In this document: positions 13,162 to 38,966 of the stretch, one piece after another
How the letters are laid out: every line of letters begins with the position of its first letter
How positions within the stretch are numbered: position 1 is the stretch's first letter
Assembly (NCBI GenBank): GCA_963812605.1
Contig: CAWEWF010000006.1
Location: 128,001-192,000 of the forward strand
Direction of reading: 5' to 3'
Length of the DNA: 64,000 bases
Source: an uncultured Verrucomicrobiae bacterium
GTDB lineage: Bacteria > Verrucomicrobiota > Verrucomicrobiia > Palsa-1439
The notes under the pieces: generated by a model
What the model saw: only the letters and a program-made list of their open reading frames with translations
Database searches by the model: none
Told to the model about the DNA's origin: nothing
Made by a program: the position numbers and the translations under genes

Positions 13162-15975
13162 GGCTTCACCTCGACAGTCCGGGACTGATGAATGTCCCGT
13201 TCCCTTCTGGTCGCGATGAGCTCGCGTATCCGGTGACTCATGGCCTCCGCCAGGACTCGCGGTCGGGGACAACTACGACAAATTCCATGGAATTCCGAGC
13301 CTTTGGACAAATTGCTTGTTCGCCAGCTCCATAGCCAAAGTGCGGTCACCCGTAAGGAGAATGTTCTCGCGGAGTTGCTCTTTGTCGCTGGTGAAAATCT
13401 TGATACCCCGGCGTCCCCGGGAAATCGTGACATACCACTGTTGCCGGTTCGTGGCCGGTTTGATGGCCGAGTCTGAAAAGAGGACGAAATCGACTGTTTT
13501 ACCTTGGGACGCATACGACGTGATGGCAAAACCGCGCACGAACTGCCGGTAATTCCGACCGAGAATCCGTCCGTCCTGGAGCTTGACGCGGCCATCCGCC
13601 AGTACTTTATCAAGCGTAACCAGTTCCCCGTTCGCGATACGTTGGCCTTCGCCGGTCCTGCCATTGGCTTTCAGTTGCAGTCGGTCTCCGGCAGCCAGCG
13701 CCAATTCTCTGGGCTGACAGACCGTCAGACGATCCAGGAATTTGAAGGGGACCGTCCGCACGGTGTTGGCAGCTTCCAAAACCAAACCGTTGCGGGTGAT
13801 GGCCACCAGCCGGCCTGTTTGACCTTTCTTGAAGCCGGCCGCATTGCGATTGAGCACGATTATGGTGTCGTCTCTGTAAAAGCGGCGATCACGCTTTTGC
13901 GCGTCCGTGAGGTCAACCGGCTCCAGCGCGGTCACTATCTGCTCATACGTGGCGATGAAGCCACGGGATTTCAGGGCCAAGCGCACGCGGTCATTCACTT
14001 TGTGGATTTCCGACCAGGTTTGCGAAACCACCACCACCGTCTGACGTTCTTCTGCAAGCGTCAGGTAATGCTCAGCAAGACGTTCCTGTTGGTCGAGTAA
14101 TGTGCAGGTGACAATTGCCCCTTGCTGATCCAAGCGGCGGAATGATTTGCTCAGTTTCCCTTCGGCAGCTTCTTTCACAGCTTGTCGGTATTGCTCAATC
14201 TGCCGTCGTTCCGCTCTCGTCTTGGCGCGAGCGGGATCTTGGCGGCGAATCTCCGTCAGTTCCGCTGCTCTCAGCCCCGAATACTTCTCAATGGCTCGCA
14301 GTGCATCGGACGCTTCCACCGCTCCGTGTTGACGCGTGTCCCCGGACAGAATTACACGGCCAGCATTATCGCTGACGTACTGGAGAAGTTGTTGCATTTG
14401 CTTCGCCCCAAGCTGACCGGCTTCATCCACAATGACGACCGTGCCGCGGATCAGTGACTGTTTCGTGAGAAACTCACTCACCGTCTGAGCGCCCTCCAAT
14501 CCATCGCGCTGTAGGTCGATGACTTGCTGGCGTTGCGGCGCGATCACCTGGATTGTGTGCCCCGCTGTCTGTAATGCGGCTCCCACCCCTCGCAGCACGA
14601 AACTCTTCCCAGTGCCGGCACCGCCGCGAAATAGAGTGACGAAGTCCCCCGAATTCAGGATGCGTTCGACTGCTTGCCGCTGATCCCGGTCAATCCGGGG
14701 ATTCGTGTGGGAAGAAACTGCGCATAGTGGATCGAACTGTCCGATTAGGTCCTTCGCCATGCACACGATGTCCCATTCGCGCTGCAACGTTTGGAAGGTC
14801 GTGACTTGGTGCGGGCTCCCCTTATTGCGGATGTAGTCCCGTTTCTGCGTAATTGCCTGCAATTCTCCAATCTCGATATTTTGGCCGCGCGCATACTCCA
14901 ACGCATGGCGCCAAAGTTCATGCTCAAGAACAACCGAGCGACGGTCGAACAAGTGTTCCTCCGCCCACATGACAGCGGACAAGGCATCGCTTCTGATTCG
15001 CCGGTCCTGTTTCGGCGACTCACTCTTTAGATCAACCAGGGACTGCTTTTCCGTGGCAGAGATTTGGTTATCCCAGTGGCATCGTAAATCCTCCAGTCGA
15101 ATCCCTTTGATTTTGCGCAGCCGTTCGCTTTGGGCAATGCCTTCGCGAATGTCCTTCACATTGCCATCGCGCAGATGCGGTTTCTTCGTCAGTAACGCCT
15201 GCGTCTTTTCATCAATCTCCTGATGGCGCTTCGAGAACCGCTGGCAGAGTTCCTGGGAGAGACCCTTGATCTCGAAGTCGCCACGTCGATGGTTGTCCAA
15301 TTCGTATCCGAATTCCCCAAGTTCTCGCGCCAGCGCATGATAATAGACGTTCTCGACGTATTTCCGTGCCCGCAACATTTCGAAGTTTTGTAACGCCTTC
15401 CAACGGTTTTCTTCCGGATCGAATGTGGCGTTGAATAGGATGCAATGGCTGTGCAGGTGTGGGTCTAAAGCCCGCGAGGTGTCATGTTGAAAGACAGCGC
15501 AGACGATATTCGCCGTGGTTCGGTCAGACAAACTCCCCTCAGCGTGTACCCGCGTGGTAGCGAATTGCTCCAACTCTCCGAGTGCCGCCACGACGGCACG
15601 GTTGTGGGCCTCGACAATGCGGGAGTCGCGTCCGACTAATGCGGCAATCGAAACCGATTTGGGAGGCGAAAAGGTGAAATCATAGAAAACGCGGCGATTC
15701 GCCACCTCGCACGTCTTGCCGTCCTCATTGACCTCGTTTCGGGTGGTCTTGATCCGTTGCGTTAATCGCTTGCCCGTGCGGGGATCGAGGTTGTCGCAAA
15801 GCTGGAGGAACTCGTCGCGCCTCACCGTTCCCGCGATCTGGAGAGACTCCGCGCCTTTGCCGAACCACTGTCCAGCAATGGATTGTCCTTCGCTGTAATA
15901 GTCGCCCGCACCCAGGTGTTCTTCGAAGTACTCTTTGGCATTCGCCAGACGGTACTGCGTTTTGGGTGACAGCAT
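13158..15975 (-). CDS. MOBF (TrwC/TraI) relaxase-helicase; probable frameshift near 13275
   Basis: N-terminal Y...DYY, YDFTFSPPKSVS, HDTSRALDPHLHSH (HUH), GGAGTGKS, VDEAG, GDTRQH, ITSYASQGKT, YVTISRGR. Confidence 0.93.
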
Positions 15976-16133
15976 CGAACACACATACCGCTATTCGCAG
16001 GAAATTGTGTTCCCAAACGGGAACAACTTGTCTTGTGGAATGCGCTTTACTACAGCGCATGGAAAGATGGCACGCCCGACCTCTAACTCGCGTTAGAAGG
16101 CTGTGTACCACCGGATGACAATTTGATGCGCCA
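15976..16133. promoter_or_regulatory. Divergent promoter region, candidate oriT
   Basis: Between relaxase and HTH accessory gene; contains the 18-bp palindrome and hairpin ATGCGCT-N7-AGCGCAT (16040-16060). Confidence 0.45.
16008..16025. repeat. ICE palindrome copy 1, TGTTCCCAAACGGGAACA
   Basis: Identical to 24516-24533 and 32282-32299. Confidence 0.95.
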
Positions 16134-17182: not shown

Positions 17183-17541
17183 GCACCGAAGACCGAAAGC
17201 TGGCCCTCAAGAATGCCATTCTGGAGTGGCGGAAGAAGTACACGGTGCAAGACGGCGATCCGATGCTGGCCGCCGTGGAATTGTGGGAAATCTACTTCAC
17301 CCACGCCCAACTCAATGGCCCAAAGGAACGGCTGCCGTCATTTGAGGATTTTCGGGACACGATGGAACAGTGCGAACGGTTGAGTGGTGATCTTACAGGA
17401 CGAGCCGCCGAGATCATTGAGGAATTGCGTGCCGTGCCGAAAATCAGGAGCGACCTGAATCGCTTCCCGATGTTCGCGTTGGTATTCACCGCCGCGCTGG
17501 CGCTGCTCGCGGGCATCCTCATCGGGAGGCTAGTGCAGTGA
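17179..17541 (+). CDS. Hypothetical protein with C-terminal TM, mobilisation operon
   Basis: ATGA/GTGA coupling to both neighbours; DGDPMLA.VEL motif. Confidence 0.65.
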   Translation: MSTEDRKLALKNAILEWRKKYTVQDGDPMLAAVELWEIYFTHAQLNGPKERLPSFEDFRDTMEQCERLSGDLTGRAAEIIEELRAVPKIRSDLNRFPMFALVFTAALALLAGILIGRLVQ

Positions 17542-18812
17542 GCAGCACGCGGCATCTTGGATTCACAACAGCCGGTTTGTCTCTAGCAGCCGGGGCGTAC
17601 TTTCTCATGAGCCAAGACCCACCGCTCTCATGGGTGTTGGCTGGGATGTTCGGTCTTATCGGCGGCTATGCGACTGCCACTTCTCTTCGCACGAGACGTC
17701 GTCCGATCGTGCGATTGAAGGGGCTGGCGTGGACGCAGGAGGATTTCTGTCGCGGTTGGCTGATCACCGGGGACACCGGCTCCGGGAAAACGCGCTCCGG
17801 GATCACACCACTGCTCTACCAGGTATTCCACAACGAGCCGCGCTGGGGCGGGCTCTGCATTGATGACAAAGGCATTTATTGGGAAACGCTTTCGGAGATG
17901 GCCCGACACTTCAACCGGCAAAACGATTTGATCCTGCTCCAGGTCAGACCGGACGACGCCCCGCTTAGTTGGAAACCAACCCACACCTATAATCTCACGT
18001 CCGATGCTGGCATTCCGTACAGCACGTTCGCCAAATTCGTCGTTGATACCGCCGCCAGCCTCGGCCAACAGGGTGACAAGAGCTTCTTCAAGAGTCAGGC
18101 GCAGACGCACATTGCCCACGCGTTGGAGGCGCTGTATGAGGTTCAGGCTGACGTGACATTGGAGAATGCCCACGAGCTACTGCTGAACGAGGAAGAATTG
18201 GACGACACGCTGGCCGAGTTGTCGGACGGCTACCCAACTGAGCGTCGCCGTGCGCTCGTGGAGCATTTACAGCATCGTTATCTCAATCAACCGCCCGAAC
18301 AGATGGGCGGCGTGAAGGAGACCGTCGCCAATTATCTGCACAATTTCCTGACCCCCGACATCGCGCAGATCTTCTGCCCTGCCGCCAACACGTTTCAACT
18401 GAGCGACATAGACCGTGGAAAAATCATCTGCGTCGCCATGCCTCAGAAATTCCAGACGGAACGCCGGTATGTGAACACGTTTTTGAAAATGCTCTTCTAT
18501 ACGCACGTCTTGCGGCGTTTCGACCGGCCGAAGGAACAACGCAAGAACGACAACCTTCTGATCTTGTGGGCTGACGAAGCGCAACGATTCGTTACCTCAA
18601 ACGACGAAGGAATGAGCGACTACAACACGATCGACGTGATCCGCGAGGCGAACGCAGCCGTCGTGGCCGCCGCCCAATCATCCACGTCGTTCATTCCGCC
18701 TTTGGGCAGGGACAAAGCAAAAGTGCTGTTGCTGAATTTGCGGAACCGTATCATTTTCAAAGCTGCCGACGAGGAGGGCGCGCAGGAGAGCGCCGATTTC
18801 CTCGGCAAACGG
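17538..18812 (+). pseudogene. virD4: Type IV coupling protein VirD4/TraD, 3'-truncated
   Basis: Two N-terminal TMs, GDTGSGKT, WADEAQ, AAAQS; homology-like sequence stops after ESADFLGKR. Confidence 0.85.
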
Positions 18813-20474
18813 TGTAACTTCGATGAGTTGGGTTGCCTCTTTGAGTTCACGAATCCATGCAAGCGTTGGCTCAATTGTCTGCCACTTGGTTTCGATACCG
18901 CGAAACAACCCGCCGAGCAAAGTCCCCGCCGATGAACCCTCGAACGCGACTCGATTTCTTTCATGTGTTTCAAGTTCGTCAAGGAGCGCGACCGCGTCTT
19001 CATCCGATGGAAACGGTGAATTTAGAAAGGATCGCACAGACTTGCGTACTTTGTGGTAGCGCATGGAGAACCACCGCGACCAGTGACCAGTGAATGAACG
19101 CAATTCGCGTCTCTGGACGGTCATCGTCTCGATATCAGGTAAATCACCAAAGACGACTCGGCCAGAGTTTCGGTCACGAAAGTCTTGAAGTTTGCGACTC
19201 TCTGCAACTGCTGTTGAAACGATTTCAGCATTCGCTTTTGAGCAGAGGGCTTCAATTGGTAGTCCGGTCGGAGCTTGCGGACGATTGAGAAGGAATAGAA
19301 CTAGCTTTTTCGCCTCATGGATCTGATCCAGGCTCTCAGGCGGAAGGAGCGGCCAACCCTCAAAATAACTACTGAAAGCGTTCATCGCGGTCTGTAGAGC
19401 AGTACGCAATCTCTCCACCTTGTCAGCTAGTTGAGTTACAGATTCCAGCGTCTGGTTCTGTAGTCCAAGCTCATGAATGAACCTAGCTCCCTGTCGTTGT
19501 GTGTCGAGGAGTCCGTCGTCAGGAGGTTGTCCAATTTTAATCTCTGGAAACCAGCTACATAATTCTTCAAAGCACTTTTGGTACGCCTGGATGGCTGAGG
19601 TAAACAACTGTAGCGTCTCCGCCGGGCCGGAATCCCCAACGAGTCGAGCAACAACATTTTCAGCACCGTTTGTCGGGATTTTGAGCAACTTCGCAGGAAT
19701 ATCCGTCAACGCCGCGAGAAGTCGAAAATCTCCAATCCTGAGTGTCGCTCTCTCAAAAACCCCGGTCGACAATTCGAGTGGAGTCTTGCTAGCAATATCA
19801 TGCACAAGACCTGAGAGTTGAGAGAGACCTTGTTCAAGTCCAGGAAGCTTGCAAAGCGGAACGTTCCCCAGCGCATGCTGACATAAGCAAAGTGCAGATT
19901 CATCCAAGATACCGGTCGCTGCCCCGTCGAGTAATCGGTTTGAATCAGCAACGCGGGAATTCAGCCGCGCGACACTAGTATGGTAGCGCGAGAGTCGTTG
20001 AACAAAAGCTCGCGCATCGCTTTGCTTTGCAGGATCATCTAGCACATGGAGTGCAAGCAGCAACTTGCCTCCGTTTGGAACGTGTAAATCCGGATTCGAG
20101 CGATGACTGGCCAGCACCTCAATATGTTTCCATGCAATTTCGGCTTGATCGGCTGGTTGGTTGGCGAACCCTAGCGCATTTACGCCCGCTGGATTTAGGG
20201 ACGCGTAGGCGAAAAGATCCTCAGCCCAGCGTAGTATTTCATTAAGCTCGTCGAGGGAGACTTTAGACGATGCCACAGAACAACGAGGGCTGACGACTGA
20301 TGCGACTGCATTGAGCGCTTCCGTGGCGCGAGCCGCGACATAGCTCCGATTGTCGGCGGTAAAGCGGAGATGTCTTTGGGCCTTCGTTAACTGGCGATAG
20401 AACTCCTCTAAATCTCGTTCGAATCTGGCAGTCGCTGTAGTGTTGTCTGGTGTCTGCCATAGAAACTCTAATAG
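18812..20474 (-). pseudogene. Internal helical fragment, probably of a DUF4011/DUF3320-type SF1 helicase
   Basis: Long alpha-helical ORF with W.RWFS.RY..VRK and G.LF.G.ET.W motifs typical of the insert region of these helicases; no own start or end. Confidence 0.55.
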
Positions 20475-29311: not shown

Positions 29312-30457
29312 ATGAACAACTTCGACACTCTATTTCCGAACTTTGCGGCAAGTTGCTCCGCCTTGAAATCGGTGTTGATGCCGGTGGCGTATCTACTTCT
29401 CGTCACCGGCATGGTGTTGTCCATGATCGCGGGTCGGCGCAGCGCCGGGCCCGTCCTACGAGGGCTGGGACGGACCATCGTGTACATCATCGTCCTCACG
29501 CAGTTGGTGAATTGGGGCAATCAGATTGCCACCATTATCGATAGCACGGTCACCAATGTTCTTCACGCCGATCCCAGTAACGTGTACCAGCAATACAATC
29601 AGGCGTTGCAGGCCCAGCAATCCACTACGTCTCAAAACAGTTGGTGGGAAAGACTGTTTAATGTGGGCACGTCCATCTTTGAGGCGCTTATCTCTGGCCT
29701 GCTCTGGATCTTCGGTTTACTGGCCAGTGTCATTGTTTTCTACGCCTACCTGGTCCAAAAGTTCATTCTCTACCTCGGCTACGCTCTCTCGCCGATCTTC
29801 ATCGGCTTTCTGGCGATTCGCGCCCTGAACCAAATCGGTACGAACTATCTGTTGTCGCTCGTCGGGGTCATGCTCTGGCCACTCGGCTGGGCGGCAGCCT
29901 CACTGGTCACGGGAGGATTGATCACTTTCATGACCGACCAGAGTTTTCTTTGGAATCAGTCGCTTGGCGGGGCGGCGGGGTACGCGTTTCAGAATTTCAT
30001 CGGGGTCGCTGCGCTCGGCCTGTGGGTGATCTTCAGCACCATTGCCGCGCCTCTCATCATTCAACGAGCCATCACTCACGGCATTCAGGCCGGTGCCGCT
30101 CTGGTCAGCGGAGTGACTACCGCCGCGACCACTGCCGCCACTGGCGGATTCATTGCGGCCGGAACTTTCGGAGCAGGTGGAGGCGTTACCGGGGCGGTGA
30201 TGGCCGCCGCCGGTGGTGTCACGGCAGCCGGGGCCACGCTGGTTGGTTCTTCAATCAGCGGTAGCACGTACTCGCCGACAGGCTCGATGATTACGGCCTT
30301 GGGGCAGATGCGCAACGCAGGTGCGGGTGGGAAGAAGCATGGAAGTGACGATACGACCAAAACAACACAAGCGCCGGCCACCATGGACACAAGTGGCGAC
30401 AATGCCGTGCAAGCGTTGCTGCGCAAAACGAAGAACCCGCACACCCCATCAGCATGA
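29312..30457 (+). CDS. VirB6/TrbL-like inner-membrane protein
   Basis: Polytopic, LSPIFIGF, LWPLGW, Gly/Ala-rich C-terminal tail. Confidence 0.8.
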   Translation: MNNFDTLFPNFAASCSALKSVLMPVAYLLLVTGMVLSMIAGRRSAGPVLRGLGRTIVYIIVLTQLVNWGNQIATIIDSTVTNVLHADPSNVYQQYNQALQAQQSTTSQNSWWERLFNVGTSIFEALISGLLWIFGLLASVIVFYAYLVQKFILYLGYALSPIFIGFLAIRALNQIGTNYLLSLVGVMLWPLGWAAASLVTGGLITFMTDQSFLWNQSLGGAAGYAFQNFIGVAALGLWVIFSTIAAPLIIQRAITHGIQAGAALVSGVTTAATTAATGGFIAAGTFGAGGGVTGAVMAAAGGVTAAGATLVGSSISGSTYSPTGSMITALGQMRNAGAGGKKHGSDDTTKTTQAPATMDTSGDNAVQALLRKTKNPHTPSA

Positions 30458-31122
30458 ACACACTTGAGACAAAGCTCCGAGAAACCCCGGTGCCGAAAAC
30501 CGAGCGGCCCAATCTGTCCCGCAAGAAATTCGATCCGACGCGCATCTTCGTCGACCGGGACCGGCTCGCATGGTTCTGGTTTGTCGTGGCCGCACTGATT
30601 CTCGTGGGAGCGGCCATTGACCGCTTCTTTCTGGTGCAGACGTTCAAGCAGCGCGAGCGCGTGGTCGTTCTTGATCCATCCGGTACATTTCACCTTGCGC
30701 CACTACTGAAATTCGAGGAGGCCAAAGACCTCCACGCGGAGCAAAGCACACTGGCCACCGTCGCCTTTCTGGAGCGCAACCCCAAAGGCTTTGACCACGA
30801 TGATCTGCTAAAGCAGATGTTCTTGAAGAACGCCCTGGTCAAGGCTCAGACCTTACAGACTTTGGAAGGGGCGGAGTTCGTCGCGAAGCAACTGCATCAG
30901 AAAGTCGAGATTGCCAAAATCACGATTCTCCAGACCCGCGAGAACTTCGTTCTGACCCAGGTGAGCGGGCAACTCGTGCGCACTGGCATTTTCCAGGACA
31001 GAGCCTTCGCCGAAGCTGTCCCCTTCACCCTCGCCTTCAAGTTCCAGCGCAACCCCAATATGGTCCAGAACGGCAGATTCCCAACTGCCGTGTCCGACTT
31101 CAAATATGAAACATCTCCCTAA
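30454..31122 (+). CDS. VirB8/TrbF-like protein
   Basis: Single TM followed by VVVLD..G; C-terminal NP...NG.FP..V..F. Confidence 0.7.
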   Translation: MNTLETKLRETPVPKTERPNLSRKKFDPTRIFVDRDRLAWFWFVVAALILVGAAIDRFFLVQTFKQRERVVVLDPSGTFHLAPLLKFEEAKDLHAEQSTLATVAFLERNPKGFDHDDLLKQMFLKNALVKAQTLQTLEGAEFVAKQLHQKVEIAKITILQTRENFVLTQVSGQLVRTGIFQDRAFAEAVPFTLAFKFQRNPNMVQNGRFPTAVSDFKYETSP

Positions 31123-31993
31123 ACACATCGCCCTGCTATTCTTGCTGGGCCTTCAGTCAAGCTCCGCAAGGGGAGCCAACCCCATCGCGGAATACCGCCT
31201 GGACGAACATACCGTGTATCCAATCCCGGTATCCCGCAGCCACGTGACAACGATCAGTTTCCCCGGGCCGATCTCGGCGATTGATGCGGCGAATGTCACG
31301 AGCGACCCAAAAATCCCCGGACTGTTTCAAATCGCCCACACGAAGGGCTCGTATTTTGTGTCTGTGAGGGCGTTGGTCGATAGGGCGACGACCAATATGA
31401 ACATTCGGTGGAACAAGAAGACCTACGTGATCGAATTGGTCGAGAGTTCCTCACCGCTTTACTCCGTGATCTTTCAATACGACGCCGACGCCGACATCCA
31501 CCCCACCTCTGGTCGTGTCACACCGAACCGCCTAATAGCGCTCCTGGACAAGGCCAAGGCCTATCCGTTTCTCAAGGAGTACCACGCCGATGCCGTTGCC
31601 CAGGTCGACTATGTTAATTTCAGCAAGAACCCGCGTGTCCTGGACTACCGGGATTACGAGGTTCAACTCGACGAGGTTTTCCGGTTTAACCCCGAGGACA
31701 CGCTGATTTTCCGGATCCTCCTGCGCAACAATACCGACCAGCCGATTCAATATCGGCCCGAAGGCTTTTCACTCCGCGTCGGTGAACGGACATATCCAGA
31801 ATCGATCAGCGACGCGAGCGGCACAATCCCGCCGCAAGGCCAGGCGCCTGCGTACTTTGCCGTAACCGGGACACCCAACGGCGGACGCAATGACCTGTCT
31901 CTGAAGAACGATTTCACAGTCCTTCTCGACCGCATCGAGATGAACACACCACCGCCAAAACCGGTGCAGACCAAATCGAAACCGTTGAAATGA
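31106..31993 (+). CDS. VirB9/TraN-like outer-membrane core protein
   Basis: Signal peptide, VTTISFP, TNMNI; operon position. Confidence 0.65.
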   Translation: MKHLPKHIALLFLLGLQSSSARGANPIAEYRLDEHTVYPIPVSRSHVTTISFPGPISAIDAANVTSDPKIPGLFQIAHTKGSYFVSVRALVDRATTNMNIRWNKKTYVIELVESSSPLYSVIFQYDADADIHPTSGRVTPNRLIALLDKAKAYPFLKEYHADAVAQVDYVNFSKNPRVLDYRDYEVQLDEVFRFNPEDTLIFRILLRNNTDQPIQYRPEGFSLRVGERTYPESISDASGTIPPQGQAPAYFAVTGTPNGGRNDLSLKNDFTVLLDRIEMNTPPPKPVQTKSKPLK

Positions 31994-32215
31994 ACCCACG
32001 CAATGCCATCGCTTTCCTGCGCAGCCCGACCGGCATGCTTCTGTCCTTCGTCGTGGTGCTGATCTTCGCGATTGTACTCGTCAAAGGGTTCTACGACCCG
32101 AACAAGGGTAAGCCCAAGACTGCTGCTGTGCTAACGCCAGCCGAGAAAACAAATCGAACATCCCAGGTACTTCAGACGATCCAACGCGAAATCGTCCCCT
32201 TCAAGCCTCGCGGCG
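31990..32215 (+). pseudogene. N-terminal stub of probable VirB10/TrbI
   Basis: TM plus linker after virB9, then runs into non-coding-looking sequence containing palindrome copy 3. Confidence 0.5.
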
Positions 32216-32281
32216 CTGCGGCTTCTGCTTCTAAGGCTTCACGCAGGAACAACGTCACGCCTAGGCCCACGACGATGATTC

Positions 32282-32299
32282 TGTTCCCAAACGGGAACA
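32282..32299. repeat. ICE palindrome copy 3
   Basis: TGTTCCCAAACGGGAACA about 90 bp upstream of the MTase-helicase start. Confidence 0.95.
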
Positions 32300-32387
32300 A
32301 CCTCACGCGGCTATTCATGGCTAAATCCCCGCAGCAGCCAGTGTCGTCATGGCGCTGGAAGAATCGACATGTTCGACGTAAACTCAC

Positions 32388-35300
32388 ATGGCTCTCAAAC
32401 GGTCAAAAGGGAAACAGCAAGACCAGCTCGATTTATTCGGCGGCAATGGAAACGGACATGCAGCCCTTGAGCCAATACGGATTAATGGCGGAGAAACACT
32501 GGCGGGAGCACCGTCCGCAGATGGTGGCGGAAATGGAGCGGGCGGGCACGCTGCACCAGATGTTGCAGGACGCAGAGGAGAAGACCAAGGACGAAATGGA
32601 CGCGATTCGTCGAAAACTCATTCAACAGGGACTGACGCCGCAACAGGCACACGACCAGGCTTGGGAAATGGTGAGGGAGAGGTACATCCTACTTCCACCC
32701 GAGAACGATTAGGCCCGCCCCGCAACCAAGCCAACTACCGGATCACCGACCACGACCGCCTTGGCGAAGGGTCACTCAAGCAGAAGTTTCGCGCCAACGT
32801 CGCCGCAATTCGGTTGCTCCGACAACTTGAGGCAGAGAAGCGACCGGCGACCAACGACGAAAAGGCGGTTCTCGTGCGGTACGTCGGCTGGGGTGGCTTG
32901 CCGCAGGTATTCGATGTCAATTCCCGAGAGTGGTTCAAGGAGCAGGTCGAACTGTCCCAGCTTCTGACTGAGGACGAACACACCTCCGCCCGCGCTTCGA
33001 CACTCAACGCGCACTACACTTCGCTGGCCATCGTTCGCGGGATGTATGCCGCCTTGGCGCGTTTCGGTTTCAAGCATGGGCGCGTCTTGGAGCCGGCGTG
33101 TGGACTGGGCCATTTCGTCGGCCTGATGCCCGAAGAGATGCACGCGCACTCCACTGTCACCGGCATTGAGATCGACCTGCTGACCGCCCGCATCGCGAAG
33201 GTACTTTATCCCGACTCGGACATTCGCCACCAGCCATTCGAGGAAACTCGCCTGGCTGACGGCTTCTACGACGCGGCGATTTCCAACATCCCGTTTGGCG
33301 ACTATCAACCGTTCGACCCGCGTTTCAACGTTTTCAAGTTTCCCATTCACGATTATTTCTTTGCTGCAGCGTTGGAAAAGGTGCGACCGGGCGGGCTGCT
33401 TCTGTTCATCACCTCCAAAGGCACATTGGACAAGAAGGATTCGACGTTGCGCGAATATCTGGCGCAACGGGCCGACCTCCTTGGTGCGGTCCGACTTCCC
33501 AACGATGCCTTTAAGCGCAACGCGAACACCGAAGTCACCACCGACATCGTGATGTTGCGAAAGCTGAACCCTGGCGAAACACCATCCGGTCCTTCGTGGA
33601 ACCAGACCGAGGAGCGTGTCAACGCGAAGGGCGAGACGATCCAGATCAACGAATACTTCGTTCAACACCCGCAGATGATGCTCGGCAAGATGGAACTGTC
33701 GGGCAGCATGTACCGCGACAACGAACCCACGCTGGTCAGCGATGGGCGGGATTTGGCCGAGGCGCTGGCGGAAGCAGTCAGCAGCTTGCCGCAGAATATC
33801 TACCGTGCACAGAAACGGACCGTAGTTCTCCCTTCCCTCGATCAAACGTTTCCCGCCCCCGATTACGTCAAGCCCAGTGCGTTTGTGATGGTTCACGACG
33901 AGGTCGCCGTCCGGATCGGCGACTCCTTGAAAACGTTGCCGGGGTTGCCGGCGGAAACCAAAGTCCGCATCCGACGGCTGATTCGGGTTCGCGATTCGGT
34001 TCGGGAATGTCTCCGCAGCCAACTCGATGGCAGCGAGGAGGCTGCGATTGTTGCGGCCCGAGAGAGACTCAATCAGGCATACGACTCGTTCATCTCGCGT
34101 TTCGGGCCGATTTCGAACCGCTCGAACACACGGGCATTTGATGGCGATCCGGATTTGCCATTGTTGCTATCGCTTGAGAATTACGACGAAGAGACCAAGC
34201 GAGCCAAGAAAACGGCGATCTTCCGCGAACGAACCATTCATCACCAGAAGCCGGTTGAGTCGGTCGAGACTCCGAAGGAAGCGCTCATCGTTTCGCTCAA
34301 CGAAAAAGGCCGCGTTGACCTCGACCACATGAGCGCCTTGCTCGGACGCTCCGAAGACGAATTTTTGCCCGAATTGAAAGGCGCGATTTTCCTCAATCCG
34401 CAGAACGAACGAGTGGGAGACTGAAGACCAATACCTGTCCGGCAACGTCCGCGAAAAGTTGGAGACCGCCGAAGCCGCCGGCATCACCGATGCGCGCTTC
34501 AAGGAAAACGTCGAGGCGCTCAAAGTCAGTCCAGCCGGAGGATTTGTCGGCCACCGAAATTGACGTTCGGCTTGGGCCGTCATGGATTCCGGCAGAGGAC
34601 ATTGAAAAGTTCTGCCAAGAATTGCTCGGCGTGACGGCGTCGACGTCGAGCCACTCCACGCGCATCGGCACATGGATGGTCTCGGCAGACTACTACGCCA
34701 AAGCGCACGGTTGCCAACACCACCGAATGGGGCACGGACCGCGCCGGCGCGCTCGAACTGATTCAGGACGCGCTGAATCTTCGCACGCCGACCATTTACG
34801 ACAAGGAACCGAAGTCGGACAAGCTCGTCGTCAACGCGGCAAGCGACCGAAGGCCGCGCGCGAAAAGCAGCAGAAGATCAAGGACCGGTTCAAGGAATGG
34901 ATTTGGCAGGACGACGAGCGCCGCGAGCGCCTGGTGCCGAAAATACAACGACGAATTCAACAACGTTCGGCTGCGAACATTCAATGGCGACCATCTGACC
35001 TTGCCCGGCGCAAGCCAGGTCGTCACACTGCATCCGCACCAGAAAGCCGGCGTCTGGCGCATCCTGCAAACGCCCAACACACTGCTGGGTCACGTCGTCG
35101 GCGCGGGCAAGACATACACGATGGTTGCGGCCGGCGATGGAATTGAAGCGGCTAGGACTAGCCCGCAAACCGATGTTCGTGGTTCCGAATCACATGCTCG
35201 GCCAGTTCTCGTCCGAACTGCTTATGCTTTATCCGGGCGCAAACATTCTCGTGGCCGGTAAGGAGGATTTCGAGACGAGTAAACGGCGACAGTTGATGAG

Positions 35301-37545
35301 CCGCATCGCCACTGGGAATTGGGACGCAGTCATCGTCACGCATTCCGGCTTCGAGCGAATCCCTTTGTCGGATGAAACCAAGAAGACGTTTTTCCGCGAA
35401 CAACTCCATGATTTGGAGATGGCCATTCGCGAGCAGCGTGCCGGTAAGAACGATCGGCGGATGGTGAAAGACTTGGAACGTGCCAAGAAAAGACTGGAGA
35501 CGAGACTCAAGTTGCTGCTCCGCCGAGGAGAAGAAGGACAACACACTGACGTTTGAGGAACTGGGCGTGGACCGTCTGTTCATTGATGAAGCCCAGTACT
35601 TCAAGAATCTGTTTTACGTCAGCAAGATGACTCGAATCGCGGGCCTGCCGCAGACAGCCTCGGAGCGGGCTTTCGATATGTTTCTCAAGACCCGGTACAT
35701 CCAGCAGGTCAACGGCGGAGGCGGTGTGGTGTTTGCGACCGGCACTCCCATCTCCAACAGCATGGCCGAGATGTTCACCATGCAGCGGTATCTGCAAATG
35801 GCTGCGCTGACGAAGTTGCGGATACATCACTTCGATTCATGGGCCGCGACGTTCGGTGAGCCCGTAACGGCGATGGAATTTGCCCCGGACGGTGCGGGCT
35901 ATCGACTGCATACTCGTTTTGCCCGGTTTGTGAATGTGCCGGAGTTGATGCAGCAGTTCCGGCAGGTCGCCGATATTCAGACGGCGCAGATGTTGAAGCT
36001 TCCAGCCCCAGCGCTGAGACATGGGAAAGCCGTTATTGTCCGCGCACCGGCAACCGCGGAATTGAAGGCTCTCGTTTCCCGACTGGCTGACAGAGCGGAA
36101 AAGCTGCGCAAAGGGCGTGTCGATCCACGCGTGGACAACATGCTCAAGATCACCACTGAGGGCCGGAAGGCCGCGCTGGACCTGCGTTTGGTTAATTCGA
36201 GCGCCCGCGATCAGCCCGAGAGCAAGGCCAACCTCGCCGTCACGAAATCTTTCGCATCTGGCGGGAGACCAAGACTGACCGACTGACGCAGCTTGTCTTC
36301 TGTGATTTGTCCACGCCCAAGGACGCAGGGTTCTCGGTTTACGACGACGTAAAGGCAAAACTGGTCATGGCACGGTGTCCCCACCAACGAAATCGCCTTC
36401 ATTCAAGATTACAACAGCGACGCAGCCAAACTCGCCCTATTCAAAGACGTTCGCGCCGGCAAAATTCGTATCCTGATGGGCAGTACGCAAAAGATGGGCT
36501 CCGGCACGAATGTGCAGGAGCGGCTCATTGCGTTGCACCATTTGGACGCGCCGTGGCGACCGGCTGACGTGGAACAGCGTGAAGGTCGAATTCTGCGGCA
36601 GGGCAACCACAACGCCGAGGTGCAAATCTACCGCTATGTCACCGAGGGTCAGTTTCGATGCCTACATGTGGCAGACGCTCGAAACGAAAGCCAAGTTCAT
36701 CCAACAAGTAATGACTGGCCGCAACGACCTTCGCCACATCGAAGACATCGATGGTGCGGCGCTCACCTACGCCGAGGTCAAGGCTATCGCGTCGGGGAAT
36801 CCACTGGTCATCGAGAAGGCCCACATTGACGCCGAGTTGGGCCGCCTTAGCCGATTGCGCGCCCAACATCATGAGACGCAGTACCGGATTCGCAACACGA
36901 TCCGACGAACGACCGAGGAAATTGAGATTCTCACCAGACGGATTGAGAATCTCCACAAGGACATCGCGGTCAGACAGCCGACACAAAGCGACGCATTTAG
37001 CATCCGCATCGAGGGAGCGCAATACACGGATCGAGGAATTGCCGGTGAGTTGATCAATCGCCGTGCTCAACAACTCCGGGGTTCGGGGAAAGACTACGCG
37101 GTCGGTGAGCTTGCCCGGGTTTGCGGTGGTCCTCCGTGCCAGTGCCCTGGAGCATACTGAGCTTGTCCTCAAGGGCGCCAATCTCTACTCGGCGAGCCTT
37201 TCCGATAGCGCCCATGGCACGACACGTTCGCTGGAGCATGCCATACAGTCCCTCGACCAGAAATCGACTCAAACTGAGAAGGACGTTGCCGAGTGCCGAA
37301 AGCGATTAACGGAATTGGAGGCGAAGGTTGGCGAGCCATTCGAGCATGAAACCAAGCTCAAGAACCTCACTCAGCGCCAGGACGAGATTGTAAAGGCATT
37401 GGACCTTACCCGGAATCAGGCATCCAACAGGCTCGACGCGAACTCGCCCAGTGACAGCGAGGAGTTCCTTTCCGAGAAGGCGGCGAGGTCGGTGCGGCAA
37501 CAGATCCACCACCGTCATGCGGAGCGCACGATTTCACTCGGGTGA
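32388..37545 (+). CDS. DarB-like N6-adenine methyltransferase + SNF2 helicase fusion (many frameshifts)
   Basis: YVGWGG, LNAHYT, VLEPACGLG, ISNIPFG; HVVGAGKT, DEAQ, ATGTP, QREGRILRQGN. Confidence 0.9.
32458..32712 (+). CDS. TnpV/DUF1896-like small protein nested in another frame of the MTase-helicase gene
   Basis: QYGLMAEKHWREHRP.....ME..G.L...L...EE ... AWEMVRERYI; own TAG stop. Confidence 0.7.
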   Translation: MQPLSQYGLMAEKHWREHRPQMVAEMERAGTLHQMLQDAEEKTKDEMDAIRRKLIQQGLTPQQAHDQAWEMVRERYILLPPEND

Positions 37546-37628: not shown

Positions 37629-38808
37629 CTACACCCCCATGGATGCGGTCTGCTTGTGAACCGATGCCTCGGCAGTGACCGATTTCTTGAAGGTGACTCG
37701 TTGCGCCATATCGGTGGAATGTTGGTCCCGCAAATGACCATAGGTTCGCATGGCCAACGCGCCGCCGTCTTTATGTCCCAACCACCTGGAGACCGTCGGA
37801 ATGTCAACGCCCGATTCGATACATCGCGTGGCAAAGAGGTGACGCAAATCGTGGTGAGTAATCCTCGCCATTCCGACGACTTGGGCCGCCCGGTCCATGG
37901 CCTTCTGGCATTCACGAACGCGCATGACCGGTACATCATCCGGTTCATCGGGCCGCTCCTTGCGAAGGCGTTCCATGAGGCTCAAGCATATCAGGGATCA
38001 TGGGAACTTCCCGCACTTCACCTGCCACCCGGCCCTTCAGCCCGGTTTCCGCATCGCCCCGCACAATAATCTTCTGTCTTTTGAAATCCACATCCGACCA
38101 CCGGATGTTGCCCGCCTCATGAATGCGGAAGCCGCCATAGGCCAGAAAGCGGATCAGGTCGGCACAGTCCCACGAGAAACGCGCATGGGGCCGTTCCACC
38201 TCCTTGAGAAACGCAGGAAACTGATCGGGCTCGGGCAGGTGGAGTGTTTTCGGTCGTTCGGTCACCCGTTTAATGAACCGACCGGGATTGTCATAGCGAG
38301 CGCCCGCTTCTACGCCAATCTCAAAGACACGCCGCAGGAGGGAGATCGTATGATTGAACGCGGACGCGCCCGTGGCCGTGCGGAATTTCGCGGCCCAGTC
38401 CAGGCATTCGGACTTCGTGATCTTGCGCACGTCTTGCTCTTTCAAGCCCGGCCAGGACTTCAGCAGCGCCGTGGTTCGTTCCTCGTAATAGACTTTCGTT
38501 TTCGGTTTGAAATTCGGGTCGGCCCTGAGCCGCTGCTGGTACAGATCCAGACAATCGCCAAAAGTCATCTTTCCGGTGAAGACAACGTCGCGATGTTCAG
38601 CGGCTTGGCGCTCCTGCTTGTCCAAATCGGCCAAGCGAAGCTTCGCGACCGTGATGGAATCAGTTTCCAGCGACCTGACAATAAGCTTGCCTCGGATACG
38701 GATTCTCGCGAAATATGTACGCGATGGAACGTACCGAATCAGGTTGGCGTAGGGAGTCTTCTGCCAGGGACTTTTTTCTTCCTTTGGCTGGCTTTGGCGG
38801 CCTTTCAT
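37629..38808 (-). CDS. Tyrosine recombinase/integrase (frameshift near 37975)
   Basis: GFRIHEA (R), HDLRH, LGH, RTYGH (Y); N-terminal arm-binding-like YFARIRIRGKLI. Confidence 0.93.
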
Positions 38809-38887
38809 TTGAGCAGTATATAAAAGCAGTATCAAATGGTCAACTAGATTCGATTACTCCATTTGCAAGTGGTTCATTTGCAACTGA

Positions 38888-38966
38888 CGGGACGTAGCTC
38901 AGCTTGGATTAGAGCGCCTGCCTTGGGCGCAGGAGGTCGCAGGTTCAAATCCTGTCGTCCCGACCA
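38888..38966 (+). tRNA. tRNA-Pro(TGG)
   Basis: CGGGACG/CGTCCCG acceptor, GCTC/GAGC D stem, CCTGC-CTTGGGC-GCAGG anticodon arm, TTCAAAT T loop, encoded CCA. Confidence 0.97.

Follow-up and report, generated by a model that had tools for sequence, protein, structure and literature searches.

Two proteins appear to be encoded by one stretch of DNA, in two reading frames, in a family of conjugative elements represented here by an uncultured Verrucomicrobiae bacterium. The DNA analysed (64,000 nucleotides (nt), called the window) contains a gene of the tnpV family that lies wholly inside the reading frame of a DarB-like methylase-helicase. We put the probability of this reading as a whole at about 0.72. 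The two-frame arrangement itself, with the steps of translation set aside, is shown by the comparison of homologous loci, which carry L-numbers below. The parts of the nested locus in the window are as follows.

32388..34424, + strand: long frame of the methylase-helicase, 678 amino acids (aa) up to the first premature stop (list of open reading frames, ORFs)
32388..32457, + strand: leader outside the overlap, ATG and 22 codons, which holds QLDLF (sequence)
32458..32712, + strand: tnpV-family gene, 84 aa and TAG, wholly within the methylase frame and in frame +1 relative to it (Pfam)
32457..32714, + strand: Gly/Ala/Arg-rich linker of the methylase, the other frame of tnpV, stop-free (locus comparison)
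32661..32663, + strand: in-frame TTG, 52 nt before the end of tnpV, the usual gene-caller start of the methylase (protein calls)

The methylase frame begins with the ATG at 32388 (its start reads MALKRSKGKQQDQLDLF) and runs without a stop for 678 codons to the TGA at 34422-34424. It encodes, in this order, a leader, a linker, a region N-terminal to the methylase and an N6-adenine methylase domain. The N-terminus of the protein is MALKRSKGKQQD-QLDLF, with the pentapeptide as residues 13-17, encoded at 32424-32438 by CAGCTCGATTTATTC. The tnpV gene starts with the ATG at 32458 and ends with the TAG at 32710-32712, after 84 codons. The part of the linker that overlaps it is of low complexity, with 19.6% Gly, 12.9% Ala and 10.4% Arg in the pooled relatives, and the conserved N-terminal block and the methylase domain begin near residue 110 of the methylase frame. 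An earlier reading of this DNA from its letters alone (the sequence-only reading) had described the coordinates, the open frame, QLDLF, the Gly-rich stretch and the nested +1 gene of 84 aa, and all of these were confirmed in the sequence.

We propose the following mechanism. A DarB-like polyvalent methylase-helicase would be translated from the upstream ATG at window position 32388, with QLxLF carried by its first ~17 residues, a disordered linker of ~90 residues next, and then the methylase and a superfamily 2 (SF2) helicase. TnpV would have a separate start, an ATG 70 nt further on, and would be read in the +1 frame wholly within the linker DNA. Ribosomes on the long frame would pass over the tnpV start, so that the two products may be translationally linked. 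The QLxLF motif would dock the enzyme on the beta sliding clamp, and the docked enzyme could follow complementary-strand synthesis of newly transferred DNA and methylate the fresh duplex before host restriction enzymes cut it. We place methylation behind complementary-strand synthesis because an anti-restriction role has been proposed for DarB-like dyads (PMC5512222).

Conservation of the two frames

Homologous loci were collected by a scan of one genome per species, which returned 564 relatives, the best 80 of which were kept; because the query included the N-terminus, this sample may be biased. A TnpV match lies beside the methylase core in 53 loci of Verrucomicrobial type, and in 52 of these 53 it is in frame +1. 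In L061 the TnpV and methylase frames are merged by an indel. Not one of these Verrucomicrobial-type loci has a methylase-frame stop inside tnpV. Two loci (L046 and L054) end at a contig edge within the overlap, and in L051 the TnpV frame continues for ~100 nt beyond its usual stop.

The openness of the long frame was compared with redrawn sequences in which the TnpV protein was held fixed and synonymous codons were drawn from the codon usage of the locus itself. The set for this test comprised 49 sequences (48 loci and the window) and left out L036, where tnpV has decayed, and the Bacillota-type loci L067 and L068, which were tested separately. The methylase frame is open across tnpV in all 49, against 5.2 expected from the redraws; on average over the 49 loci 10.6% of the redraws left this frame open, and 13% did so for the window. 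Summed over representatives of 12 clusters that share less than 75% nucleotide identity, log10 P amounts to -12.3. Stops interrupt the third sense frame in all 49 loci, on average 4.4 per locus. The TnpV frame is intact in all 49 as well, although the redraw test is weak in this direction, with 37.4 expected to be open. When 401 genomes of the phylum were searched with TnpV only, the methylase frame was open in 13 of 13 loci besides the window's own; this set and the first scan draw on the same species, and their independence is incomplete.

The start of tnpV is kept as well: the aligned position holds ATG in 34 and GTG in 5 of the 49 loci, and its distance from the methylase ATG is exactly 70 nt in 29 of 47. 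Loci in which the small gene is damaged or missing are informative about the leader. In L036, with its decayed tnpV, the methylase frame is open and QLDLF is intact. Four further loci (L048, L049, L053 and L056) have no tnpV and retain QLD[LF]F ahead of a Pro-rich linker and the core; the motif stands near the start of the open frame in L049, L053 and L056, and after a longer open frame in L048. The persistence of the motif in these five loci indicates that the leader belongs to the methylase independently of tnpV.

The same scan returned loci from Bacillota and Synergistota, where the methylase core is part of ORFs that exceed 2370 aa and have additional domains at the N-terminus. A canonical TnpV lies in frame +1 inside a Gly/Arg/Asp-rich linker in nine of them (L063, L065, L067, L068, L069, L071, L072, L076 and L082), and L078 holds TnpV as a fragment at a contig edge, again in frame +1 within the linker. 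The nested TnpV of L067 and L068 score 121.5 and 138.8 bits in Pfam, and nested Bacillota TnpV cross-match the window by tblastn (E of 6e-4 and 2e-3). The big frame is stop-free across tnpV in nine of nine loci, where 2.6-13 stops would be expected; the probability of an open frame is at most 0.055 in each of the nine, and in five of them 0 of 3000 redraws stayed open. The extreme case is L072, with 28% G+C. The expectation of the sequence-only reading that the upstream frame stays open in homologues is borne out in 49 of 49, 13 of 13 and 9 of 9 loci.

The order of parts is reversed between the two types. In five of the nine Bacillota/Synergistota loci (L067, L072, L082, L076 and L063), QLxLF starts 4 nt before the tnpV stop codon, and the dual-coded stretch ends exactly where QLxLF begins; in Verrucomicrobia QLxLF comes first and tnpV after it. 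The Verrucomicrobial TnpV also lacks ~25 N-terminal residues of the Bacillota form. Standalone tnpV genes from annotated plasmids served as controls, and four of them carry 4, 4, 3 and 14 stops in the corresponding frame. The plasmid records L130 and L131 have no stops across tnpV, with open frames of 1398 and 1334 aa. As a separate observation, the gene table of L131 (NZ_OY725736.1 160217-166525) lists a coding sequence for TnpV and none for the frame of at least 1334 aa that runs across it; either the listing has gaps, or the large gene was discarded for the nested one during annotation.

The two frames differ in the kind of constraint they are under. The ratio of nonsynonymous to synonymous substitution (dN/dS) in the TnpV frame is 0.20 for 12 representatives and 0.12 for 112 pairs of 80-95% identity, whereas the same bases read in the methylase frame give apparent values of 1.85 and 2.70. 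Nucleotide diversity at codon positions 1, 2 and 3 is 0.27, 0.19 and 0.45 in TnpV, compared with 0.27, 0.21 and 0.55 in the methylase core. By both measures TnpV is a normally constrained protein, and the substitution pattern shows purifying selection on what is presumably a live protein. The linker, judged by the same alignments, is kept stop-free and is otherwise free in sequence, as expected of a disordered tether. Because tnpV also occurs on its own, the overprinting lies in the linker frame; on this comparison, TnpV is the older, constrained frame and the methylase linker has been written over it.

The sequence-only reading had claimed that both frames are translated. That both are coding is well supported by the open frames, the QLxLF codons and dN/dS, and translation follows from this comparison as the likely consequence. 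A search of sequencing runs returned no RNA run among its matches, each of which, as DNA contigs, accounted for at most 0.11 of the sampled words.

The QLxLF leader and the start of the methylase

In the leader outside the overlap, the methylase frame is the only one in use. In 47 aligned leaders, codon positions 1 and 2 of Q and F are invariant, as is position 2 of both L codons, and third-position diversity within QLxLF reaches 0.44-0.74. The flanking columns vary at all positions and contain whole-codon indels. Third-position variation within a conserved QLxLF argues that the leader is translated and selected in the methylase frame. Of 52 loci, 50 have a motif of the form QL.[LF]F, which in the Verrucomicrobial type follows an ATG at a distance of 10-21 residues (QLDLF in 32, QLSLF in 6, QLNLF in 4, QLELF in 3, QL.FF in 5 and none in 2); the prediction that QLxLF is conserved in homologues holds to this extent. 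The motif sits in a putatively disordered N-terminal stretch and is conserved above its surroundings.

QLxLF is described as an experimentally validated consensus for binding to the beta clamp, also in transposases of mobile elements (PMC4549789), and the QLSLF of the RK2 initiator TrfA is reported to be required for its interaction with the beta clamp (PMC8034659). To model the complex, DnaN from the same genome (366 aa, 29 aligned rows) was paired with residues 1-40 of the methylase (24 aligned rows). The complex scored 0.59 (runs of 0.22, 0.59 and 0.63), and the best of three controls scored 0.00; the runs showed contact agreement of at least 29% and a partner pLDDT (predicted local distance difference test) of at least 38, and the result was graded as weak support. 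Of 80 solved complexes, 58 pass the mark applied to such predictions, as do 2 of 110 mismatched pairs, and scores of 0.60 or less among those that pass comprise 7 of the 80 solved complexes and both passing mismatches. Because clamp-peptide complexes have already been solved, a pass may also reflect likeness to those. From the motif match, its conservation and this complex prediction, clamp binding emerges as the most likely role of QLxLF, a role that we favor with some reserve. For the tethering to the replisome that the sequence-only reading had proposed, the motif and its conservation stand, the complex prediction lends weak support, and the idea as a whole is plausible and unproven.

A separate observation concerns DnaN. 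In four genomes of one genus (G401, G407, G413 and G419), a single open frame of 392-440 aa matches DnaN in two parts, residues ~3-229 and 231-365, which points to an insertion of ~25 or more residues between clamp domains in that genus.

We then turn to the question of where the methylase starts. Downstream of the tnpV stop, the methylase frame of the window reaches the conserved core without an ATG, GTG or TTG, and the sole in-frame alternative is the TTG at 32661, inside tnpV. A methylase start after the small gene was thus not found here. Among 40 loci scored, the corresponding internal codon is GTG in 16, TTG in 13, CTG in 7 and ATG in 4. The invariant Trp codon of TnpV forces it to xTG, and for that reason it cannot be the universal start. 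Still, the TTG at 32661 may give a second, short isoform of the methylase.

Several observations weigh against the two-protein reading. Among the database proteins listed, long calls amount to 20 of 120, and the short calls begin with [MLV]G[ND]G. The internal codon would be usable as a start (ATG, GTG or TTG) in 33 of the 40 loci. In L005 the upstream ATG and the Q of the motif are lost and an ATG stands at the internal site, which indicates that a short form can exist and suffice; L005 and L073 are without the motif, and L073 is without the leader too. The 13 loci ascertained through TnpV include three with QLDFL and one with QTDFF, and in two of the 13 no motif was found in the stretch examined. 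Shine-Dalgarno-like words 5-17 nt upstream show no enrichment over a background of 0.14 at either start: they occur in 8 of 47 loci before the methylase ATG and in 8 of 43 before the tnpV start, which was often misplaced in this count at a Leu TTG, that of LTQYG. Relatedness among the loci and overlap between the two genome collections mean that the counts overstate independence. The complex of DnaN with the leader was graded weak and had one low run (0.22) among three. From the window copy the large protein cannot be made whole, and fold searches returned no convincing structural relative of TnpV that would point to a role.

A rival reading has two isoforms of the methylase. The plasmid protein TrfA has two in-frame isoforms, and by analogy with TrfA-44/33 the locus might yield a long enzyme with the clamp motif, a short one without it from the internal xTG, and TnpV as well. 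The two starts are widely conserved, L005 gets by with a short form, and the QLSLF of TrfA is likewise placed in the N-terminal region (PMC8034659). We nevertheless consider this scheme unlikely: 7 of 40 loci have CTG as the internal codon, ribosome-binding words are not enriched at the upstream ATG and the tnpV start, where they were examined, and nothing in the data requires the short form.

We judge it improbable that a short methylase is the only one, made from an internal TTG, GTG or ATG with an overlap of ~50 nt with tnpV, and that the upstream frame is an untranslated by-product of GC-rich sequence. This view would agree with the ~100 of 120 listed database proteins called from the internal codon or later, with the usable codon in 33 of 40 loci, and with L005, where the upstream start is gone and ATG occupies the internal site. 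Gene callers that limit same-strand overlap would yield short calls in any case. An untranslated by-product is hard to reconcile with a frame that all 49 loci keep open where 5.2 were expected to, the third frame being closed in each of them, and that is open in 9 of 9 low-GC Bacillota loci with up to 13 stops expected. Neither would it account for variation confined to third positions in QLxLF, nor for the internal CTG in 7 of 40 loci at a codon that the Trp of TnpV forces to xTG.

It is very improbable that the nested tnpV is an untranslated relic and that the large protein alone matters. Such a relic would fit L036 and L061, where tnpV is decayed or merged and the methylase frame continues, as well as the four loci without tnpV. 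Against it stand the dN/dS of 0.12-0.20 in the TnpV frame, ATG or GTG at the aligned start in 39 of 49 loci, the 121-139 bits retained by nested Bacillota copies and, as a weak test with 37.4 expected, the intact TnpV frame in 49 of 49. We give the least credence to a programmed frameshift, by -1 to join TnpV to the methylase or by +1 to join the QLDLF leader to TnpV, in place of two independent initiations. In its favor, the frames differ by one base and are both open across the overlap. Against it, inspection of 32640-32712 by eye, with no formal scan, revealed no slippery heptamer, a shift near the end of tnpV needs no openness over ~84 codons back to an ATG with a conserved motif, and TnpV has its own conserved start.

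The two-protein reading can be extended to an ancient, cross-phylum overprint. In this extended form the enzyme would have arisen or lengthened when the older tnpV was read through in another frame and served as a ready-made disordered linker, QLxLF would recruit what would be the first clamp-bound DNA methylase of bacteria, and TnpV would be coupled translationally and act with the enzyme or regulate it. We put this forward tentatively, with somewhat more doubt than confidence.

TnpV, the window copy and the surrounding element

The sequence-only reading had called the small protein TnpV-like and helical, and both attributes are corroborated: the window protein matches Pfam TnpV (PF14198) with 30.0 bits at a cut-off of 27 (E 5.5e-7, profile positions 21-94 of 111), and its AlphaFold2 model consists of four helices with a mean pLDDT of 90. 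The accompanying label "DUF1896-like" has to be dropped; there is no DUF1896 match, and the matches are TnpV and a sub-threshold DUF6074. NCBIfam has no family for either TnpV searched. With this model, the best E that Foldseek reached against the PDB was 1.0, and a wide search with VIA-align gave a best Z of 5.0 (root-mean-square deviation of 2.2 over 49 residues), in a range common for helical models. A role like that of lambda Xis was once suggested for TnpV (PMC3158075); the fold searches lent it no support, and no Xis-like fold appears among the Foldseek and VIA-align matches. In the window, TnpV is encoded on a mobile element (relaxase, coupling protein, TrbL, integrase-like ORF and tRNA-Pro). 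We may speculate from its constant co-encoding with the linker that the role or the expression of TnpV is linked to the methylase.

Two other features of the overlap were considered. The TnpV frame in the window is open back to an ATG at 31990 (31990-32712, +, 240 aa), overlapping the stop of a VirB9-like gene, and would encode a membrane-like segment first and TnpV last. Where the TnpV frame closes varies among relatives, L003 and L006 closing it 27 nt upstream, and the fusion was rejected; the 240-aa frame looks incidental on these alignments. A second in-frame ATG for TnpV at 32446 is not conserved. On the opposite strand, two antisense ORFs of 56-62 aa lie over tnpV (window 32433-32652, -), and of the three antisense frames, two lack stops in 28 and 24 of 49 loci. 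This openness is at the level expected of GC-rich DNA and is no sign of a third gene.

The methylase ORF of the window is 88% identical to proteins of 1621 aa that one source names "N12 class adenine-specific DNA methylase". The relatives are single ORFs of 1621-1735 aa that include the helicase domains. In Pfam, all methyltransferase matches of the window ORF are sub-threshold, the ORF of L067 matches N6_Mtase with 38.7 bits at a cut-off of 20.4, and the relative P0015 has SNF2, Helicase_C and ResIII matches slightly under their cut-offs; PF28553-PF28555 are listed for methylase-helicase relatives. NCBIfam gave for P0015 only helicase and methylase defence families far below threshold. The NIPF of the window methylase is presumably a (D/N)PPY-type motif, and a conserved block NYRI...RYVGWGG precedes the methylase.

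On tblastn evidence, the window copy is a pseudogene of a member of the DarB-like methylase-helicase family. When P0001, the best protein relative, was searched against the whole genome, the window copy was found in a single frame only for residues 1-582. The rest of P0001 matches the window at 34701-35135, 35134-35529, 35522-36655, 36651-37115 and 37087-37518, in frames 2, 3, 1, 2 and 3, which makes at least five frame changes in all after 34424; window 34406-34700 matches P0001 weakly. The helicase fusion in a single ORF, which is present in the relatives, is thus absent from the window copy. Other long ORFs in the window are intact, which makes a general assembly error unlikely. The sequence-only reading had implicitly treated this copy as functional, which does not hold, as the helicase two-thirds are frameshifted and the large gene is broken after 34424. 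The 5' third, with nested tnpV and QLDLF included, is intact, and the window copy could yield at most a methylase-only remnant of 678 aa and TnpV.

Two more copies are present in the genome, both 98% identical to P0001. The one at C7:116362-121498 (-) lies at a contig end, has nested tnpV and QLDLF intact, and contains one frame change near residue 1422; the one at C14:3-4699 (+) lies at a contig start and is cut by the contig end. These copies are fuller than the window copy, and the element, being repeated, probably breaks the assembly.

The remainder of the gene and the neighboring features of the window are the following.

13273-15984, - strand: TrwC relaxase (279.8 bits)
17538-18935: coupling-protein ORF of the type IV secretion system, 465 aa (profile match)
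29312-30457, + strand: TrbL/VirB6-like (TrbL 30.2 bits, cut-off 25.9)
30454-31122, + strand: ORF without family assignment
31106-31993, + strand: CagX/VirB9-like ORF (CagX 29.1 bits, below the cut-off of 34.2)
34425..37545, + strand: rest of the methylase-helicase gene, decayed (SF2/SNF2-type helicase), split over all three frames (tblastn, ORF list)
37945-38835, - strand: integrase-like ORF, 296 aa (Phage_integrase 24.8 bits, below the cut-off of 27.1)
38888-38966, + strand: tRNA-Pro(tgg) (ARAGORN)

Type IV secretion genes (29312..31993, +) lie directly upstream of the nested locus, and the integrase-like ORF and tRNA-Pro (37945..38966) form the edge of the element. This gene content places the locus in an integrative conjugative element. 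At 465 and 296 aa, the ORFs of the coupling protein and the integrase-like protein look short for their families, and the Pfam match of the latter covers only part of the profile. The whole element in the window may be decaying, beyond the methylase-helicase alone.

Comparison with known systems

The enzyme family, the TnpV family, the clamp pentapeptide and out-of-frame nesting as such are already known. A DarB-like dyad is described by Iyer et al. 2017 (PMC5512222) as an EcoKI/TaqI-like N6-adenine methylase with an SF2/SNF2-type helicase, found in phages and conjugative elements, with a proposed anti-restriction role; the conserved domain N-terminal to its methylase is named LPD36 (PMC5512222). 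The proteins studied here share with it the methylase-helicase fusion (in relatives), a putatively corresponding conserved region N-terminal to the methylase and transfer genes as neighbors, and the Bacillota loci L067 and L068 are polyvalent ORFs of more than 2370 aa with extra N-terminal domains. In contrast to the published dyad, there is a second gene inside the linker and a conserved QLxLF; moreover, the Verrucomicrobial proteins are bare dyads of ~1620-1750 aa rather than many-domain proteins, and the window copy is broken. The main text of PMC5512222, its supplements aside, makes no mention of TnpV, the clamp, overlapping or frameshift.

The nested gene resembles TnpV of Tn4451-type elements in its Pfam score and as a small helical protein of a mobile element. 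The known genes, however, are standalone and have 3-14 stops in the -1 frame, whereas here the gene is nested out of frame. For the beta-clamp motif of RK2 TrfA and of insertion sequence transposases, the likeness extends to the exact pentapeptide, its place in a terminal disordered stretch and its conservation amid variable neighbors. Transposases carry the motif mostly at the C-terminus (PMC4549789), while it is N-terminal in the Verrucomicrobial enzymes and internal, just after the linker, in those of Bacillota, where as in the former it would be a candidate clamp-binding site.

Nested genes on the same strand and out of frame are exemplified by comS in srfA and gndA in gnd, and according to the preprint PMC11230408 just two nested ORFs had been characterised before 2019. 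As in those pairs, a small protein is encoded in another frame of a large multidomain ORF. The polarity differs, in that here the small gene is old and conserved and the linker of the large ORF is overprinted. The scale differs as well: comS and gndA encode short, lineage-specific peptides, whereas nested tnpV comprises 84-118 codons of a Pfam family and occurs in at least three phyla.

In the literature searched, with supplements and most subscription journals outside its scope, we found no description of the nested tnpV arrangement or of a clamp motif in these methylases, and no bacterial DNA methylase reported to use a clamp-binding motif. What we did not find in print, and take to be new, is a tnpV gene overprinted by the linker of a polyvalent enzyme across three phyla, together with a conserved clamp-type motif in these methylases. 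Long conserved same-strand pairs in different frames are rare in bacteria, and this one, present in Verrucomicrobiota, Bacillota and Synergistota, offers clean natural controls and a clear polarity of an old gene and an overprinting linker. It points to a route to gene fusion in which an intervening gene is read through in another frame. It also explains why annotation pipelines cut these methylases short or leave out one gene of the pair, with consequences for catalogues of domains and start sites in conjugative elements. The conserved QLxLF supplies a testable mechanism by which a transferred anti-restriction methylase could reach the new duplex in time. In eukaryotes, DNMT1 with PCNA is a functional analogue of a methylase recruited by the clamp. 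If the proposed mechanism is true, the enzyme described here would be the bacterial counterpart of this pair, marking incoming DNA during synthesis of the complementary strand.

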